In this document: one piece after another, positions 6,100 to 12,426 of the stretch
Layout of the letters: each line of letters starts with the position of its first letter
Numbering within the stretch: position 1 is the first letter of the stretch
Assembly: GCA_040770465.1 (NCBI GenBank)
Contig: JAXGJB010000050.1
Location: forward strand, 1 to 12,426
Source of the DNA: Methanothrix sp.
GTDB lineage: Archaea > Halobacteriota > Methanosarcinia > Methanotrichales > Methanotrichaceae
DNA length: 12,426 nucleotides
Direction of reading: 5' to 3'
Made by a program: the position numbers and the translations under genes
Notes under the pieces: model-generated
Database searches by the model: none
Told to the model about the DNA's origin: nothing
The model's input: only the letters and a program-made list of their open reading frames with translations

Positions 6100-7254
6100 T
6101 CATCCCACCACCGTCAGAGTGTACTGGAATGTGCTGCTCCCGAAAGCTCGGACCTTGATGTAGTAGGTTCCTGGATCCAGATCCTCCTCGATCATCGACC
6201 AGCTCCCTTCTCCATCGTCGTCGTCTGAGGCTATCTCCTCCTCTTCGTCGTCGTAAAGGTGGAGGTAGGAATCGGCGAGGTCGTCTCCAGAGGTCTCTAT
6301 AGTCACTTCCAGGGGCTCAACGACCTCCAGTATGTAGTAATCTGCGTCGTATTCGGGGAGGATGCATCCGGTTGCCGTCAACTCGACCCCTTCGGTCAGG
6401 TTGCCGAGATCCAGGGCCTCGTCGAAGTCGTCGTTGGACTCATTGTCACAATCGAGGTCGAGGAAGGAGATGACCAGGACGTAACCCAGGGTGGAGTCGG
6501 CGTACTCGGACTGGGCGCGAATGGCGTATCTACCGGCAGGGAGATCCGTCGATATGTCGTCGATGCCATCTTCAATGGGGACGTAACCGCCTTCGCTGTC
6601 ATTGTAGGTGTAGAGGACGAGAGATAACGAGTCCACATAGTACCACCAGATATCTTCATCCCCCAAGTCCTCTTCATCCTCGAGTTCGAAGGTCTCGCCG
6701 GTTATCGATACGTAGCCCTGCGACTCCGGCCCGATCTCGAATAGGAAGAAGTCGGTGTCGGCCATCGGATCGATGGATCCGGAGATCATGGTCGTATTGG
6801 CCAGGAGCCCCAGGTCGTGGCCCTCGGAGATGCAGTCGTTGGGCTCGGACTCGGCCATTACGGTTCCGACGGCGATGGTGTAGTTGTCGGTCTCAGAGTA
6901 GATCGAGTCTGCGCGGACGAAGTAGGTCCCGGCCTCAGCCGTCAGCTTGAGGATCTCTTCGTCGTCGTCGAGGTAGCTCATGTTCGCATCGAAGACGACC
7001 AGCCTCATGGAGCTTATGTCTGAAGATATGATCAGATCAGTCGGTGCCTCGACGGTGAACTTGAACCAGTCGATATCGCCGGGATATATTAGGTCCGACT
7101 CATAAGATATCTCGCCGCCTTCTGCCCCGATCGTCCCCAGGTCCGTCGCCCCGTCGGCGACGTCGTCGGTCTCTACATCCTGAGCCAGGACGATACCGAT
7201 TCCTCCCGAAATTAGAAGGATCGTCAAAGATACCATCAATCTGGTATTCATCAT
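6100..7254 (-). CDS. Secreted, highly acidic protein made of three tandem PPC (pre-peptidase C-terminal)-like beta domains
   Basis: Signal peptide MMNTRLMVSLTILLISGGIGIVLA, then three units with the pattern [E/D]xNDxxxxAxDLG...G.I.P..D.D[WFY][FY].[FL].V...L[YF]...[AP]G[TR]Y.[VI]R/K...Y.[IL].[VI]. No catalytic peptidase motif seen. SD-like GAGGGG lies just upstream. Confidence 0.75.
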   Translation of the reverse strand: MMNTRLMVSLTILLISGGIGIVLAQDVETDDVADGATDLGTIGAEGGEISYESDLIYPGDIDWFKFTVEAPTDLIISSDISSMRLVVFDANMSYLDDDEEILKLTAEAGTYFVRADSIYSETDNYTIAVGTVMAESEPNDCISEGHDLGLLANTTMISGSIDPMADTDFFLFEIGPESQGYVSITGETFELEDEEDLGDEDIWWYYVDSLSLVLYTYNDSEGGYVPIEDGIDDISTDLPAGRYAIRAQSEYADSTLGYVLVISFLDLDCDNESNDDFDEALDLGNLTEGVELTATGCILPEYDADYYILEVVEPLEVTIETSGDDLADSYLHLYDDEEEEIASDDDDGEGSWSMIEEDLDPGTYYIKVRAFGSSTFQYTLTVVG

Positions 7255-7304: not shown

Positions 7305-7448
7305 TGCTCTCCCGAGAGATCACCCTAAGATCGCCCATTTCATTGAGGCGGTTTCGACGATCGCCCGCCCTCAGTCTTCTTCATCTTCTCCCTCTCTGGG
7401 TTCGGCTTCATCAATAAAAGCCGAAATCGGCTGGTGAAACAGTGAATC

Positions 7449-7484
7449 TTTTTATAGGCTCGGCTCCAGTTCATCATAAGGAGG
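7449..7484 (+). promoter_or_regulatory. Putative TATA box and SD for the repeat-protein gene
   Basis: TTTTTATAGG at 7449-7458 and AAGGAGG at 7478-7484, both downstream of the track's GTG 7442. Confidence 0.5.
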
Positions 7485-7492
7485 AATTCGCG

Positions 7493-8929
7493 ACGAGATC
7501 GATCCCGGCCCTCGGCCTGACGTTGGCGCTGGCGGCGCTGCTGCTGCTGATGGCGGAGGACGCGTCGCTTGGCGCGACAGACGACTCGCGCAGGGTCGTC
7601 CAGGCTGACGAGATCCTGGCCAAGATCGAGCGAGGCGAGAACCTAGATGGAGTGATCGTGGAGGGCGATTTGGATTTAAGCGAAAGGGCCTTGGGAGCGA
7701 TCCATTTCAACAATACCATATTTCTAGGATCGGTCAATTTTAAAAACACCACATTTACAGGAAATGCGTGGTTCATGGGATCTAATTTCAGCGATTATGC
7801 CGTATTCTCGGGAGCGGAGTTCTCGGGTGGAAATGCAGAGTTCTCTTTTGCAAAATTCTCTGGTGGATATACAGAGTTTTCGAATTCAGAGTTCTCGGGA
7901 GGAGATGCCAATTTCATTTTTGCGGAATTTTCTAGCGGCTATTCCTCCTTCTCGCAGGCGAAGTTCTCGGGAGGGAAGGCCTACTTCATGAATTCTAAGT
8001 TCTCGGGAGGGCATACCTACTTCTCGCAGGCGATGTTCTCAGGCGGAGATGCCTCATTCAGTGAAGCTGTGTTCTCGGGTGGAAGTGCCAAATTCTGGAT
8101 GGCTGTTTTCTCTGGCGGAGATGCCTCCTTCAGGGAAGTGGCGTTCTCTGGCGGAGATGCAGACTTCTGGAATGCGACTTTCTCTGGTGGAGATGCCTAC
8201 TTCTCGGGAGCAGTGTTCTCTGGTGGATATGCAGACTTCTCGGATGCGGACTTCTATGGTGGAGATGCCTACTTCTCGGAAACCGAGTTCACGGAGGATG
8301 CCCTTTTTGAGAATGTAAGGTTCACGGGCGAATTCTCTTTAACAAGGGCAAGATATAACAAATTATATATCAGGTGGCATAATATTGAAGGTGGGCTAGC
8401 TTACGATGATGCAGCATACTTATCACTGCTGAAGAACTTCAAAGAGCTGGGCTACTTCGAAGACTACGACAGCTGCTACTTCGAGTACAGAAAGGAACGC
8501 CGAAACCAGCCATGGCCCCTGGTGGGCTACTGGGAGGAAGCCTTCAGGAAAAAGATCGACCTCCTGCTGGAGTGGTTCTACGGCTACGGGACAAAGCCCG
8601 TCAACGCCTTGTATTTTTCTATCGGTATCATCATCCTATTCTGGGGATTCTGGTGGTTTATTGGCCTGGGCAGCAGGCCTGAGTACATCCTCGACGAGTA
8701 CAGTAAGTTAGATACCAGCCTGGATCAAATACACGAAGTTCTCCTCTTCAGCGCAACAGTCTTCCTCTCCGGAACGAGGCTATTTATTGAGCCACCGTCC
8801 ATCCCGAAGATAGGGGGAAGGTCTCGATCTATGGTAAGATGCGCCTTCATCTTTGAGCGAGTCCTTGGGGCGCTCTTCTCGATCCTCTTTTTCCTCGCCA
8901 TCAGCGGGACGGTGGTGAGGCAGCTGTAG
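7493..8929 (+). CDS. Pentapeptide-repeat-like (beta-solenoid) membrane protein with N-terminal signal sequence and C-terminal two-TM module; start uncertain (GTG 7442, ACG 7493 or TTG 7523)
   Basis: Signal-like RSIPALGLTLALAALLLLMA, cap RVVQADEILAKIERGE..VIVEGDLDLS, F-periodic repeats, helical linker AYLSLLKNFKELGYFEDYDSCYFEYR, then GYGTKP + TM, LLFSATVFLSG, and a second TM (FERVLGALFSILFFLAISGTVVR). Confidence 0.8.
   Translation, partial: TRSIPALGLTLALAALLLLMAEDASLGATDDSRRVVQADEILAKIERGENLDGVIVEGDLDLSERALGAIHFNNTIFLGSVNFKNTTFTGNAWFMGSNFSDYAVFSGAEFSGGNAEFSFAKFSGGYTEFSNSEFSGGDANFIFAEFSSGYSSFSQAKFSGGKAYFMNSKFSGGHTYFSQAMFSGGDASFSEAVFSGGSAKFWMAVFSGGDASFREVAFSGGDADFWNATFSGGDAYFSGAVFSGGYADFSDADFYGGDAYFSETEFTEDALFENVRFTGEFSLTRARYNKLYIRWHNIEGGLAYDDAAYLSLLKNFKELGYFEDYDSCYFEYRKERRNQPWPLVGYWEEAFRKKIDLLLEWFYGYGTKPVNALYFSIGIIILFWGFWWFIGLGSRPEYILDEYSKLDTSLDQIHEVLLFSATVFLSGTRLFIEPPSIPKIGGRSRSMVRCAFIFERVLGALFSILFFLAISGTVVRQL
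7820..8287 (+). repeat. Coding tandem repeat, 13 x 36 nt (consensus F-S-G-G-x-A-x-F-x-x-A-x)
   Basis: Units start every 36 nt from 7820 with approximately TTCTCnGGnGG: FSGGNAEFSFAK, FSGGYTEFSNSE, FSGGDANFIFAE, FSSGYSSFSQAK, FSGGKAYFMNSK, FSGGHTYFSQAM, FSGGDASFSEAV, FSGGSAKFWMAV, FSGGDASFREVA, FSGGDADFWNAT, FSGGDAYFSGAV, FSGGYADFSDAD, FYGGDAYFSETE. Confidence 0.95.
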
Positions 8930-9064
8930 CCGGGGCGCGGTCAACGCCGGCCGACAGCGAGCGTCAACGATATTCTATTCTATCAGATCGAATTGAGATT
9001 CCAGATGGGCATTTTTGACGACCAGCTCGACTTCTGCCCGAAGATGGGAAAACTCTTTCAGAAA

Positions 9065-9083
9065 GAAAAGCGCAAATAAATAA
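9065..9083 (+). promoter_or_regulatory. Putative BRE/TATA promoter of the tusA-dsrE2-iscS-iscU cluster
   Basis: GAAAAGCGC-AAATAAATAA, ~60-70 nt upstream of the tusA start, in an A-rich patch. Confidence 0.4.
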
Positions 9084-9142
9084 CAGAACGTGGCTCCCAG
9101 GCGGCCTCTCGCCACCGGGGGCGATTCGTGGCGGTGATTCGA

Positions 9143-9367
9143 TTGGCTGAGATCAAGGTGGATTGCAGGGGCCAAAACTGCCCCGTGCCCCTGGTGGAGA
9201 CGAGAAAGGCCCTGAAGCGGGCGGCGCCGGGCGACGTGGTGGAGGTGACGGGGGACCATCCCGCCTCCAGAAAGGAGATCCCGATGGCGGTGAAGGCGCT
9301 GGGCCTTGAGCTTCTGGAGGTCGAGGGCGAGGAGGGTGGAGAATGGCGGATCAGGATAAGGAGATGA
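9143..9367 (+). CDS. tusA: TusA/SirA-family sulfur carrier protein
   Basis: DCRGQNCPVP (CPxP motif), GDVVEVTGDHPASRKEIP and C-terminal WRIRIRR. I prefer TTG 9143 because GGTGAT (9133-9138) precedes it; the track starts at GTG 9128. Confidence 0.9.
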   Translation: MAEIKVDCRGQNCPVPLVETRKALKRAAPGDVVEVTGDHPASRKEIPMAVKALGLELLEVEGEEGGEWRIRIRR

Positions 9368-9813
9368 CCGAAGAGATGAACGGGGAGATGACTGGGGCGG
9401 ACAAGGTCACCATAATCGTTCACAGCGGCGACCTCGACAAGATCTACAGCGCCCTCATCATCGCCAACGGGGCGCTGGCCATGGGGATGGAGGCGTCCCT
9501 CTTCTTCACCTTCTGGGGGCTTCAGCGGCTGAAGAAGGGGTGCCTTGAGAAGGGCCCCCTCTCGAAGATGAACATGCTGGGCCTCGGCCGGTGGATGGTG
9601 TTGCGTCGGATGAAGGCGGCTAATGTGTCATCCCTCGAAAAGCTCCTCTCCGACTTCAAGGAGCTGGACGGCAAGATCATCGCCTGCGAGATGACGATGG
9701 AGGTTATGGGGATCAGAAAGGAGGACCTCCGGGCTGACCTGATCGACGAGTACGGGGCCGTCGGGACCTACGTCCAGGAGGCGAGAGGGTCGGCGATCAA
9801 CCTCTTCATCTGA
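9364..9813 (+). CDS. DsrE2-like (DsrE/DsrF/DrsH family) sulfurtransferase
   Basis: IIVHSGDLDK, ANGALAMG, LFFTFWGL, LSKMNMLGLG, IACEMTMEVMG (conserved Cys), AVGTY and terminal LFI. ATGA overlap with the tusA stop at 9364-9367; alternative ATGs at 9376 and 9388. Confidence 0.9.
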   Translation: MTEEMNGEMTGADKVTIIVHSGDLDKIYSALIIANGALAMGMEASLFFTFWGLQRLKKGCLEKGPLSKMNMLGLGRWMVLRRMKAANVSSLEKLLSDFKELDGKIIACEMTMEVMGIRKEDLRADLIDEYGAVGTYVQEARGSAINLFI

Positions 9814-9882
9814 GGTTGGCTTTTTGGCTTTTTGATTTTGGATTGAAGAGAGATCAGGAGAGATCAGGGGGATCAGAAGAAG

Positions 9883-11052
9883 ATGTTCGAAACTTCCGTT
9901 TATCTTGACAACGCCTCCAGCACCAGGCTCGACGAGAGGGTGATGGAGGCAATGAAGCCCTACTTCTTCGAGGTCTACGCCGTGGCGACCTCGGAGTTCG
10001 GCTACTCCATGGGGATCGAGGCGAAGGAGGGTTTGGCAGGGGCAAGAGAGAAGCTCGCCGGGATGCTCCGGGCCGGCCCAGAGGAGGTGGTCTTCACCTC
10101 CGGGTCCACCGAGTCGAGCAACGCGGCCATCAAGGGGGTCGCCCTCGCCCTCGGCAAAAAGAAGGGGCGGCACATCATAACGACGAAGATCGAGGACTTT
10201 CCGGTCCTTCACAGCGCCCGGTCCCTGGAGCGGGACGGCTTCGAGGTGACATACCTGGAGGTCGACTCTGACGGCCTCGTCGACGCCGACAGGCTGCAGG
10301 AGTCGATTCGAAAGGATACGATCCTCGTCTCGATCCAGCACGGAAATCAGGAGATAGGGACCGTCCAGGACGCTGAGGAGATCGGCCAGATCTGCATGGA
10401 CAGACACGTCTTATTTCACACCGACGCGACCCACACCTTCCGCCGGATGCCCATCGACGCCAACCGGGTCCCGGCAGACCTGATAACCATCTCCGCCCAC
10501 ACGATCCACGGCCCCCGGGGGATCGGCGGCCTCTACATCAGGGAGAAGACGCCGATCTCCAAGTGGATGGACGGAGGATACCAGGAGTTCGACCGGCGGG
10601 CGGGGATCGAGAACATCCCCGGAGCCGTCGGGTTTGCCGCAGCTGCGGAACTCGTCACCCCCGAGGAGAACGATCGGATCAGGGGGATGAGAGACCGGAT
10701 CCTCGACCGGGCCCTCGCTGAGATTCCTCAGACGACATTGAACGGCTCCAGGCAAAAGAGGACGCCCCAGAACGCCAACGTCACCTTCCACCTTGTTGAG
10801 GGTGAGTCAATCACCCTCCACCTGGACATGAGAGGGTTTGCGGTGAGCACCGGCTCCGCCTGCTTCTCGCGGTCTCTTGAGGCAAGCCACGTCATCGCCG
10901 GGATCGGTGGCGACCACGAGCGGGCCCACGGATCGGTTCGGTTCACCCTGGGCAGGTTCAACACCATGGAGGAGGCGGACGCCGTCGTCGACGCCATCTC
11001 CGAGGTTGTGGAGACCCTCCGGAAGATAAGCCCCCTCGGCAAAGGAAAGTGA
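9883..11052 (+). CDS. iscS: IscS/NifS group-I cysteine desulfurase homolog lacking the PLP-binding lysine (probable pseudo-desulfurase)
   Basis: Full-length 389 aa with YLDNASST, FTSGSTESSN, FHTDA, GPRGIG, STGSACFS (Cys327) and SVRFTLGRFNT. It reads SAHT instead of SAHK and IEDFPV instead of xEHxAV. Confidence 0.9.
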   Translation: MFETSVYLDNASSTRLDERVMEAMKPYFFEVYAVATSEFGYSMGIEAKEGLAGAREKLAGMLRAGPEEVVFTSGSTESSNAAIKGVALALGKKKGRHIITTKIEDFPVLHSARSLERDGFEVTYLEVDSDGLVDADRLQESIRKDTILVSIQHGNQEIGTVQDAEEIGQICMDRHVLFHTDATHTFRRMPIDANRVPADLITISAHTIHGPRGIGGLYIREKTPISKWMDGGYQEFDRRAGIENIPGAVGFAAAAELVTPEENDRIRGMRDRILDRALAEIPQTTLNGSRQKRTPQNANVTFHLVEGESITLHLDMRGFAVSTGSACFSRSLEASHVIAGIGGDHERAHGSVRFTLGRFNTMEEADAVVDAISEVVETLRKISPLGKGK

Positions 11053-11080
11053 AGTGAGTAAAGTTGGAGGAGAATTTGAT

Positions 11081-11719
11081 ATGACCAAGTTTCCTTACAG
11101 CGACCTGGTTCTCGAGCACTTCAAGCACCCGCGGAACGTCGGCGAGATCGAAGACCCCGACGGCAAGGCGACGGAGGGTAGCCCCGCCTGCGGCGACATG
11201 GTCTCCGTCTACATCAAGGTGGACGACGAGACGAAGACGATTTCAGACGTAAAGTTCCAGTCTTACGGCTGCGCATCGAACATCGCCACCGGATCGATCA
11301 TAACGGAGCTTGCCAAGGGAAAGACCCTGGATGAGGCGAAGAAGATCACCTGGAAAGAGGCCTCTGAGGCGTTGGGGGGGCTTCCGCCGATCAAGGCCCA
11401 CTGCTCGGTCCTGGCGGTGGAGGGGCTCAGGTCCGCCATACGCAACTACGAGGAGAGACACGGCCTGGTCACTGAGAAGGTCCCTACGACCCGAAAGGTG
11501 GTGGAGAGGCGGCTGAAGAAGGTGATGAATCCGCTATCAGGCCTCGATCTGGTGAGGACGAAGCTGGTCAGTGAGATCGAGGTTAATGACGGAAAAGTCA
11601 GGGTGGTGATCGACCTTCCGCCCGATCACCAGTTTGCGAGGGCCATCCGGGAGGAGGTGGTCGAGAAGATCGAGCCCCTCTGGGACGTGGCGGAGGTTGT
11701 GGTCGAGTTCAAGGACTGA
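11081..11719 (+). CDS. iscU: IscU/NifU-N Fe-S scaffold fused to a C-terminal DUF59/SufT/MIP18-like domain
   Basis: YSDLVLEHFKHPRNVG, GSPACGD, SYGCASNIA and LPPIKAHCSVLA give all three Cys plus Asp/His. The last ~77 aa have DUF59-like patterning. I prefer ATG 11081 (GGAGGAG at 11066-11072) over GTG 11054. Confidence 0.92.
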   Translation: MTKFPYSDLVLEHFKHPRNVGEIEDPDGKATEGSPACGDMVSVYIKVDDETKTISDVKFQSYGCASNIATGSIITELAKGKTLDEAKKITWKEASEALGGLPPIKAHCSVLAVEGLRSAIRNYEERHGLVTEKVPTTRKVVERRLKKVMNPLSGLDLVRTKLVSEIEVNDGKVRVVIDLPPDHQFARAIREEVVEKIEPLWDVAEVVVEFKD

Positions 11720-11800
11720 AGAGCCGGGTGCCTTGAAGATGGTGATGACTTGATCGGTCAGCCAGCTATGAGGGAGCAAACTCCACCGGAGCATGACGGA

Positions 11801-11812
11801 TAGATATATCTA
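11801..11812 (+). promoter_or_regulatory. Palindromic TATA-like element upstream of the last gene
   Basis: Perfect 12-bp palindrome TAGATATATCTA ending 26 nt before ATG 11839. Confidence 0.45.
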
Positions 11813-11838
11813 AACTGCCATCAATAAATTTTGATTCG

Positions 11839-12426
11839 ATGATGAAGGTCGATCTGGATCAGATCCTCGCCCTCGCCGGGGACCTGGCGGAGGATGGGGC
11901 CAGGGACCGGTTCCGCCGATTCCTCCTCGAATCGGCGAAGGACTCCGACTCGATAAGACAGCTCGCTGCTGCAGCCTCCAAGGCGCAAGACCATCAGCAC
12001 CGCCTCGCCCTCGCGGATCTCTTCTGGAGCCTGGGCATCCCCCTCGGATTTGAGCCCGCCCTCTCGTTCGGGGGAGAGTGGGTCTCCCCCTCAGGAGTCC
12101 ACGTCCTTCTGGAGATGGTGGCCGGGGATGAGGCGCCGGAGATCGCCTCCATCCTCAACAGGGTGGAAAGCCTGGCCACAGCCTCCGACACCATCGCCGC
12201 CCCCAGGGCGCTGGAGTCGGTCGGAGAGGCGGAGGTCACGACGAACGATGGGGACGTCGCGGACCTGGAGGGTGGTGGGGAAGAAGTAAAGGATGAGGGG
12301 CTGAGCGCCTTTGGCCTCCTCATCGTCGAGGACGCCGAAATCCTCCGGGTGGAGGACGCCATCCTCGATGAGGACGAGGAGGGGCAGATTCGGGCGATCT
12401 CGATCTCGGCGCTCCTCGCCCTCTCC
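11839..12426 (+). CDS. Hypothetical protein, partial (runs off the right edge); possibly a degenerate PD-(D/E)XK nuclease-fold domain
   Basis: 196 open codons with host-like GC3: MMKVDLDQILALAGDLAEDGARDRFRRFLLES...HRLALADLFWSLGIPLGFE...FGGEWVSPSGVHVLLEMV...AFGLLIVED...QIRAISISALLALS. Absent from the ORF track because it has no stop in the window. Confidence 0.75.
   Translation, partial: MMKVDLDQILALAGDLAEDGARDRFRRFLLESAKDSDSIRQLAAAASKAQDHQHRLALADLFWSLGIPLGFEPALSFGGEWVSPSGVHVLLEMVAGDEAPEIASILNRVESLATASDTIAAPRALESVGEAEVTTNDGDVADLEGGGEEVKDEGLSAFGLLIVEDAEILRVEDAILDEDEEGQIRAISISALLALS

Follow-up and report, generated by a model that had tools for sequence, protein, structure and literature searches.

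The window analysed here is an entire contig of 12,426 bases (C50) from a Methanothrix sp. genome of 2.54 Mb that is 94.85% complete. Its subject is a cassette of four genes for two sulfur carriers of the TusA and DsrE2-like families, an IscS-like protein without the lysine that binds pyridoxal 5'-phosphate (PLP), and an IscU scaffold fused to a DUF59 domain. The lysine-less protein and its gene are called pseudo-IscS and pseudo-iscS below. The cassette is a real, conserved, widely spread and uncharacterised variant of the minimal IscS-IscU system of iron-sulfur (Fe-S) cluster assembly. The four genes lie as follows.

9143-9367, plus strand: tusA, a TusA-family sulfur carrier (PF01206); alternative GTG start at 9128.
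9364-9813, plus strand: dsrE2-like gene, a DsrE2B-like sulfur carrier of the DrsE_2 family (PF13686).
9883-11052, plus strand: pseudo-iscS (lysine-less iscS), a protein of the IscS/NifS fold (PF00266).
11081-11719, plus strand: iscU::DUF59, a fusion of an IscU scaffold domain with DUF59 (FeS_assembly_P); alternative GTG start at 11054.

The TTG at 9143, taken as the tusA start, aligns with the ATG starts of its orthologues. The tusA stop overlaps the dsrE2-like start by 4 nucleotides (nt) in an ATGA. The next two gaps are 69 nt and 28 nt, the latter shrinking to 1 nt if the GTG at 11054 is used. A sequence-only reading of this DNA had described four co-oriented genes with these gaps and with the cysteines of CPxP, IACEM, GSAC and three IscU sites, and the open reading frames, Pfam matches and motifs bear it out. 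Each of the four proteins falls under the NCBIfam equivalog cut-offs of characterised families, and they are thus superfamily members rather than named equivalogs. Among named records, those closest to the locus bear the titles Methanocrinis or Methanothrix. A different genetic code was considered and dropped, as the frames are all open under table 11.

Pseudo-IscS has the class-V aminotransferase fold (Aminotran_5, PF00266; 229.1 bits against a cut-off of 21.5, residues 6-368) and stays under every NCBIfam desulfurase cut-off (NifS, 417.5 against 530.75; IscS, 382.2 against 548 and 368.2 against 643.2). Its best solved relatives are the Archaeoglobus fulgidus IscS chains 4r5f and 4eb5 (334.9 bits); the canonical desulfurase 9wep scores 328.2 bits. 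Alignment with 9wep gives ieDfp for ieHhs, daTHtf for daVQsl, saHTihgp for saHKmygp and ragIen for ragTen. Thr207 thus stands in place of the lysine that forms the Schiff base with PLP, Asp105 in place of the stacking histidine, His184 in place of a glutamine, and Ile242 in place of a threonine that is the PLP contact of the second subunit. With four contacts replaced, the PLP site is dismantled, as had been proposed from the sequence. Of 15 aligned lysine-bearing sequences, 13 have the histidine, glutamine and threonine at these contacts. What pseudo-IscS retains is Asp181, His206 and the mobile loop STGSACFS with Cys327.

The altered site is itself conserved. All 81 pseudo-IscS sequences have threonine at the lysine site, aspartate at the histidine site, histidine at the glutamine site and the loop TGSACFS[RK]. 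The same Asp/His/Thr set is present in 24 of 24 full-length orthologues from related genomes; one more (L009) ends short of the lysine site and shows the first two. Identity to 13 orthologues from other families, bacterial and archaeal, is 67-75% (alignment A3). In a tree of 106 sequences the 100 pseudo-IscS rows are separated from six lysine-bearing paralogues by a branch with a Shimodaira-Hasegawa-like approximate likelihood ratio test (SH-aLRT) value of 100, and the archaeal rows fall mostly in one subclade. The possibility of a decaying pseudogene was dropped, since all 81 sequences are intact and highly conserved; the protein is evidently under strong constraint. With these residues, pseudo-IscS is predicted to be unable to cleave cysteine to make persulfide. 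A complex prediction for pseudo-IscS with TusA from alignments gave scores of 0.37, 0.15 and 0.19 against a mark of 0.32, and was used neither for nor against an interaction.

The scaffold protein consists of two domains. Residues 15-136 match NifU_N (PF01592; 145.9 bits against 22), and residues 149-216 match FeS_assembly_P (PF01883; 54.1 bits against 23.5), the DUF59 domain, which is free of cysteine. The IscU domain has the three cysteines (PACGD, YGCAS, AHCSV), the aspartate and the LPPIK motif. Among 78 sequences, the first two of these cysteine motifs are kept in all 78 and the third in 76, the remaining two being cut. Its best solved relative is A. fulgidus IscU, chain 4eb5_C (145.5 bits). 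The DUF59 fusion is kept in 75 of 78 loci, and the other three are cut by contig ends. The genome encodes a second IscU on another contig (C3:20635-21246; L137 3136-3747), immediately behind a gene for a Hef-associated nuclease. The DUF59 match of this IscU is weak, at 23 bits against the cut-off of 23.5. Copies of this type occur in most of the searched genomes of the genus, with or without the cassette.

Both carriers have a single active cysteine. TusA matches PF01206 at 83 bits in the window (82.1 bits in the genome search; cut-off 28.6), and its active cysteine lies in CPVP; 75 of 76 orthologues show the pattern C-P-[VI]-P, and the remaining one is cut. The NCBIfam equivalogs TusA (33.1 against 78), YedF (44.4 against 79) and YeeD (19.3 against 147.5) all score below their cut-offs. 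The DsrE2-like protein matches PF13686 at 126.1 bits (cut-off 25). It has one conserved cysteine, in IACEMT, which aligns with that of its best solved relatives, 2qs7 and 3pnx, and A-C-[DE]-M-T is found in 78 of 78 orthologues. Its score of 69.4 bits against the NCBIfam DsrE2 equivalog of sulfur oxidisers (NF047629) is below the cut-off of 210, and it is therefore better named DsrE2B-like. In the genome search the cassette TusA was the sole TusA match and the cassette DsrE2 the sole copy. A genome of the same genus without the cassette, 99% complete, has no TusA anywhere.

The survey of relatives covered 61 related genomes, with thresholds of at least 66% identity for pseudo-IscS and at least 68% for IscU::DUF59. 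A DsrE2 match, pseudo-IscS and IscU::DUF59 were found in the same 26 genomes; in one of these (G037) the only DsrE2 is divergent and on another contig. Six further genomes of the genus have the four genes in this order, as do 14 genomes that belong to three genera of a different family. When 251 genomes sampled from the phylum were searched, pseudo-IscS and a DsrE2 orthologue (at least 68% identity) again coincided, in the same 27: the window genome and 26 of the 29 genomes of one family. The distributions of tusA-dsrE2 and of iscS-iscU are thus linked in both surveys, where unlinked distributions had been named as a sign against a common system.

The cassette also extends far beyond the phylum. 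A wide scan with the pseudo-IscS alignment against one genome per species gave 599 pattern matches and 536 confirmed relatives, of which the best 80 were kept. By record title, 55 of these 80 loci are bacterial (among them 34 Dehalococcoidia, six Syntrophia, five Nitrospirota, three Anaerolineae and one Clostridia), 24 come from archaea, and one record, of Altiarchaeales, has no rank. The archaeal loci belong to Methanotrichaceae, Methanosarcinaceae, Methanofastidiosia, Methanomassiliicoccaceae and Methanobacteriaceae. The order tusA-dsrE2-pseudo-iscS-iscU::DUF59, on one strand, is that of the window in 75 of the best 80, with median gaps of 16, 25 and 15 nt over the 80 loci. All four genes are present in a different order at L074, and two other loci are cut upstream by contig ends. 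That the order is kept in 75 loci of other species makes the arrangement more than chance, and the conservation elsewhere that had been asked of the gene order is there. No flanking family was found in more than 10 of the best 80 loci. The larger flank clusters overlap the core genes, mostly on the opposite strand, and were taken for shadow frames, unchecked.

Some Dehalococcoidia loci have one or two genes of the Asp/Glu/hydantoin-racemase family between pseudo-iscS and iscU::DUF59. The gap at this place is 800-1576 nt in four loci, and racemase inserts are annotated in two (L068 2116-2775; L117 6495-7934). Downstream of the cassette at L120 is a heavy-metal P-type ATPase (7484-10180) whose domains are HMA, E1-E2 ATPase and YHS, and this ATPase family is found in 10 of the best 80 loci.

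A second lysine-less clade is found in other families of the phylum sample. These IscS genes, 42-47% identical, have aspartate (or glutamine) at the lysine site and asparagine at the preceding histidine. In a tree of 52 rows a single branch (SH-aLRT 99) unites the K-to-D sequences; this branch joins lysine-bearing forms (SH-aLRT 97) and is separate from the K-to-T clade of the cassette (SH-aLRT 99). As the two types stand apart on the tree, the PLP lysine was probably lost more than once. The crystallised type belongs to the K-to-D clade: a protein of genome G213 matches chain 4eb5_A with 826.6 bits over 377 residues and falls there. A locus of the same genome, paralogous to that of the 826.6-bit gene, encodes the IscU sequence of chain 4eb5_C (L145 3687-6862, minus strand). 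Its order is tusA, a DsrE gene (PF02635, 77.5 bits), K-to-D iscS, iscU, a helix-turn-helix gene and a DrsE_2 gene, so that the crystallised type of lysine-less pair has sulfur-carrier genes of its own.

Adjacency to tusA was scored with the Pfam TusA model within 1 kb. It was found at 12 of 15 lysine-less loci outside the K-to-T clade (one of the others gave a weak partial hit and two gave none) and at one of 11 lysine-bearing loci outside the cassette loci (G202). In the K-to-D loci tusA is directly upstream, often with dsrE. The carrier link is thus wider than the cassette of the window. The co-occurrence of lysine-less IscS with tusA, dsrE2 and iscU-DUF59 that had been named as a check stands for the cassette, and extends to a K-to-D clade behind tusA; a strict tie of tusA-dsrE2 to pseudo-IscS does not stand. 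In the window's own family, two genomes (G033 and G019; loci L156 and L157) carry K-to-D type IscS beside iscU, and in G033 tusA lies 450 nt upstream of it. No K-to-D copy was found in the window genome by genome search.

The families of the cassette are those of the Escherichia coli IscS-TusA-TusBCD relay, namely IscS, TusA and a carrier of the DsrE family that has an active cysteine, and the IscS-TusA complex 3LVJ is among the solved-structure matches of pseudo-IscS. The E. coli IscS is a PLP-active sulfur source, and the flow from it is outward, into tRNA thiolation. There TusBCD forms a heterohexamer, and the Tus genes do not form one operon with iscU. No TusBCD, TusE/DsrC or MnmA gene was found in the window or in the conserved flanks, the parts that were searched.

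A pair of TusA with a DsrE2/DsrE3-type carrier, like that of the cassette, is also found in the rDsr and sHdr relays of sulfur oxidisers. Those relays feed DsrAB or sHdr; neither such genes nor rhodanese are conserved beside the cassette in the 80 loci. According to the available text of PMC11094781, carriers of the TusA and DsrE types pass persulfide or thiosulfonate between single cysteines in established relays, and DsrE2B (PDB 2QS7) is a homotrimer. The cassette shares its two-protein core, with iscS and iscU adjacent, with the minimal system MIS (IscS-IscU), which is described together with SMS (SufBC). Neither the annotated open reading frames of the window nor the flanks conserved across the 80 loci include hscAB, fdx or iscA, or any chaperone or ferredoxin gene. 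Sulfide can be used by both MIS and SMS, and MIS is described with the cysteine desulfurase MisS (PMC13066941, available text). In the cassette the desulfurase is dead by sequence and two carriers are added. The sulfur carrier of minimal systems is given as unknown in the accessible part of that 2026 review, where TusA is mentioned four times and neither TusA nor DsrE is connected with MIS or SMS (PMC13066941).

Lysine-less pairs have been described before. In A. fulgidus, according to the accessible text of two papers, IscS is inactive through a K-to-D change and supplies a cysteine ligand to the [2Fe-2S] cluster on IscU (PMC7585200, PMC13066941). This pair (4EB5, 4EB7, 4HVK; D199K variant 4R5F) is lysine-less like pseudo-IscS and is the best solved relative of both pseudo-IscS and the IscU domain. 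It differs in belonging to a separate clade, in combining the K-to-D change with H205-to-N while His104 is kept, and in having a single-domain IscU without DUF59; genes of its type are also preceded by tusA and dsrE, as in the cassette. In Methanosarcina acetivorans, IscS1 (MA0808) has the loop STGSACFS and is without PLP-binding residues, and IscU1 (MA0807) is a 24.2 kDa protein with LPPIK (PMC7585200, available portion). That mass is the size of IscU plus an extra domain, as in IscU::DUF59. The four-gene order of the window is found in Methanosarcina genomes (L124, L126, L128 and others), and the M. acetivorans isc1 cluster appears to be the orthologous system. IscS1 by itself was insoluble. 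The neighbours of IscS1/IscU1 are termed "unknown function" in the portion of PMC7585200 that was available.

The sequence-only reading knew of no description of the arrangement. PLP-less IscS with IscU is known from A. fulgidus and was noted for M. acetivorans IscS1; no interpretation of TusA and DsrE beside a lysine-less IscS was found in the literature, in a search that did not extend to the A. fulgidus structure papers, the TusA review and the MIS/SMS work. The novelty is smaller than had been supposed.

The four genes could form a self-contained Fe-S assembly unit in which TusA and the DsrE2B-like carrier feed sulfane sulfur to the lysine-less pseudo-IscS and IscU, a proposal that we think about evenly balanced between right and wrong. 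Most likely, pseudo-IscS would dock on IscU::DUF59 as canonical IscS does. Its Cys327 would then be a relay point for persulfide, the fourth ligand of the cluster, or both, like the loop cysteine in the solved IscS-IscU complex of A. fulgidus. With one invariant cysteine each, TusA and the DsrE2B-like protein may be dedicated carriers of sulfane sulfur in the form of protein persulfide. They would deliver it to Cys327, to IscU or to both, replacing the lost PLP chemistry. The ultimate sulfur might be environmental sulfide, polysulfide or thiosulfate, or come from a separate active desulfurase. The cysteine-free DUF59 domain probably helps to pass clusters on. A dead IscS keeps its loop cysteine beside a scaffold, with the genome's only TusA and DsrE2 in front, and a relay is the simplest reading of this. 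It is the best available reading and an unproven one, in which binding, direction of transfer and sulfur source are steps that we infer.

A number of observations weigh against this relay. Within the genus the cassette is accessory and dispensable, being present in seven of 16 genomes including the window genome. In the four genomes of a fourth genus, tusA-dsrE2 lies 110-127 kb from pseudo-iscS-iscU::DUF59 on the same contig. G037 has tusA-pseudo-iscS-iscU::DUF59 without dsrE2 between, and two Anaerolineae loci, which have 5.3 kb or more of sequence to either side, hold pseudo-IscS alone. Conversely, three genomes (G093, G073 and G266) have tusA-dsrE2 orthologues at 57-64% identity and no pseudo-IscS orthologue; in G093 (L142 4867-6716, minus strand) and G266 (L143 5071-6801, minus strand) the pair follows three DsrE/DsrF/DsrH-like genes. 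The carrier pair is thus a module that is able to serve other acceptors. In G202 (L147 3745-6093, minus strand) a lysine-bearing IscS stands behind dsrE2-like and tusA-like genes and before iscU. This protein has SSHK, keeps the histidine, has Gln-to-Asp and Thr-to-Val changes and sits on a very long branch; with such neighbours, the carrier link is not exclusive to lysine-less IscS. The raw association of lysine loss with tusA adjacency on the tree (32/4 against 1/14) comes down to only 2-3 independent contrasts, for which a sign test is powerless. In the proteomes of M. acetivorans, only IscS2/IscU2 are consistently detected, though Table 1 of the same source marks IscS1 as detected (PMC7585200, available text). 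Other desulfurases are also at hand. The window genome has a lysine-bearing IscS/NifS paralogue at C46 with SSHK, 50% identical to pseudo-IscS, and two checked relatives without canonical IscS (G044 and G049) have SufS-family proteins, one at 508.4 bits against 475.1. A SufB-like gene is present in the window genome. With lysine-bearing desulfurases coexisting, cysteine may remain the ultimate sulfur source, and the cysteine-independent system of the sequence-only reading is not borne out.

Four other explanations account for parts of these data. Pseudo-IscS may be only a structural partner that provides a fourth cysteine ligand, with clusters built from free sulfide and with TusA and DsrE2 buffering or detoxifying sulfane sulfur or acting in regulation. 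The A. fulgidus pair is a precedent, for which free-sulfide assembly is proposed in the available text of PMC7585200 and PMC13066941; M. acetivorans IscU2 can be loaded chemically with sulfide and iron (PMC7585200, in the same portion). The G037 cassette without dsrE2 and the two loci with pseudo-IscS alone fit as well. The hosts in the 80 records are mostly uncultured metagenome-assembled genomes of methanogens, Dehalococcoidia and Syntrophales, which we take to be anaerobes of sulfidic habitats. We nevertheless judge such a ligand role unlikely, as it leaves unexplained the single active cysteine of both carriers, kept in all complete orthologues, their status as the genome's only TusA and DsrE2, and the two separate lysine-less clades behind tusA. 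A relay that runs outward, with sulfur or the IscU cluster passing through TusA and DsrE2 to thiolation targets (tRNA s2U, molybdopterin or other thio-cofactors), looks improbable. Such a unit would resemble the E. coli Tus make-up of TusA and a DsrE-family protein by IscS, which is mentioned in the available part of PMC13066941. It would also agree with the orthologous tusA-dsrE2 that follows a DsrEFH/TusBCD-like trio in G093 and G266, and with the same neighbours beside the lysine-bearing IscS of G202. However, pseudo-IscS cannot start a relay since it has no PLP lysine, no tusE/dsrC or mnmA is among the conserved neighbours, and the invariant partner is the scaffold IscU::DUF59.

That invariant partner, an Fe-S scaffold, also speaks against a unit that moves selenide or perselenide rather than sulfur. 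The best NCBIfam match of TusA is the selenium-metabolism protein YedF, and a TusA/TusD pair of Methanococcus maripaludis is up 4.5-4.6 log2-fold on selenium depletion (PMC11097638, available text), but the YedF score is under its cut-off (44.4 against 79) and the conserved neighbours in the 80 loci include neither selD nor a gene for a selenoprotein. Selenium transport is accordingly a very improbable function. Finally, the adjacency may have been inherited with a mobile gene block, the carriers having no functional coupling to pseudo-IscS and IscU. The patchy occurrence within the genus and the 67-75% protein identity between bacteria and archaea fit horizontal spread of a block. We can scarcely credit mere co-inheritance, given that 75 of 80 loci over many phyla preserve the order and the short gaps with no other gene carried along, that the genus with split pairs still retains both pairs, and that the separate K-to-D clade has the same kind of neighbours.

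The sulfur relay to pseudo-IscS and IscU thus stays the preferred reading, and it invites a wider one. Loss of PLP binding may be convergent (K-to-T, K-to-D and two cases of K-to-Q), each time behind tusA and often with a gene of the dsrE family, and mark a general TusA/DsrE route to Fe-S clusters that is free of cysteine cleavage. Asp105, His184, His206 and Thr207, strictly conserved in what was the PLP pocket of the K-to-T clade, would on this view have become a new functional site (a metal or sulfide site, for instance) rather than a relic of the old one. This generalisation is tentative, and we hold it to be rather doubtful. If it were true, the route would be shared by anaerobes among the bacteria and the archaea, the crystallised pair of A. 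fulgidus included, and would place inorganic or sulfane sulfur onto the loop cysteine.

Two non-coding features accompany the genes.

9054-9083, plus strand: candidate promoter/operator, made up of the palindrome TCTTTCAGAAAGA at 9054-9066 and then an A/T-rich, TATA-like stretch at 9074-9083.
9814-9882, plus strand: spacer between dsrE2 and pseudo-iscS, with two T5 runs and the tandem 10-mer AGAGATCAGG just before the pseudo-iscS start.

The first precedes the tusA start by about 45-70 nt. In four of four aligned loci from the genus the block GGAAAACTCTTTCAGAAAGAA...ATAA is unchanged and its flanks diverge; 9054-9083 is a candidate operator and promoter of the cassette. In the spacer the copy number of the 10-mer varies among aligned loci of the genus, L062 being divergent; the T5 runs are possible archaeal termination signals.

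One anaerobic-digester study supplies eight short RNA contigs on 8900-11900, drawn from four metatranscriptome libraries. Six are identical to the window and two differ by one and four letters. One contig (9608-9869) takes in the last part of dsrE2 and the bulk of the spacer, including the T runs, and stops 14 nt before pseudo-iscS. Four are pieces of pseudo-iscS, and one bridges the junction of pseudo-iscS and iscU (10924-11188). The contigs leave tusA, most of dsrE2 and the DUF59 half without cover, which says nothing on their expression. The RNA support is weak because the libraries may hold DNA, and a two-gene contig does not prove one transcript. Matches in sequencing runs all have small shares (0.06-0.17), from which no habitat claim was drawn.

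The rest of the window also codes for CdhA and the archaeal 3-dehydroquinate synthase II. Upstream of the cassette lies a gene for a 495-amino-acid pentapeptide-repeat protein (7442-8929; Pentapeptide_3, 91.4 bits) with a hydrophobic C-terminal part. It is kept in loci of the same genus, and two of these (L029 and L030) add a diverged second copy on the opposite strand. Positions 6100-7254 (minus strand) encode a very acidic protein of 384 amino acids whose N-terminus is hydrophobic and which has two domains of the PPC (pre-peptidase C-terminal) type. Downstream, an acidic open reading frame without a Pfam or NCBIfam match (11839-12426) runs off the contig end. Its homologue follows the cassette in four loci of the genus at 55-62% identity.

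Sulfide donates the sulfur of Fe-S clusters in Methanococcus, and the sulfur source of anaerobes that are without cysteine desulfurase, or make no use of it, has been an open question since. The cassette names two candidate sulfur carriers for lysine-less IscS-IscU pairs. It occurs in a genetically tractable methanogen, as isc1 of M. acetivorans, and the A. fulgidus-type pair, with neighbours of the same kind, already has structures; with a tractable host and existing structures, the idea of dedicated carriers is directly testable. If it is true, "cysteine desulfurase" annotations in Dehalococcoidia, Syntrophales and methanogens would read differently.

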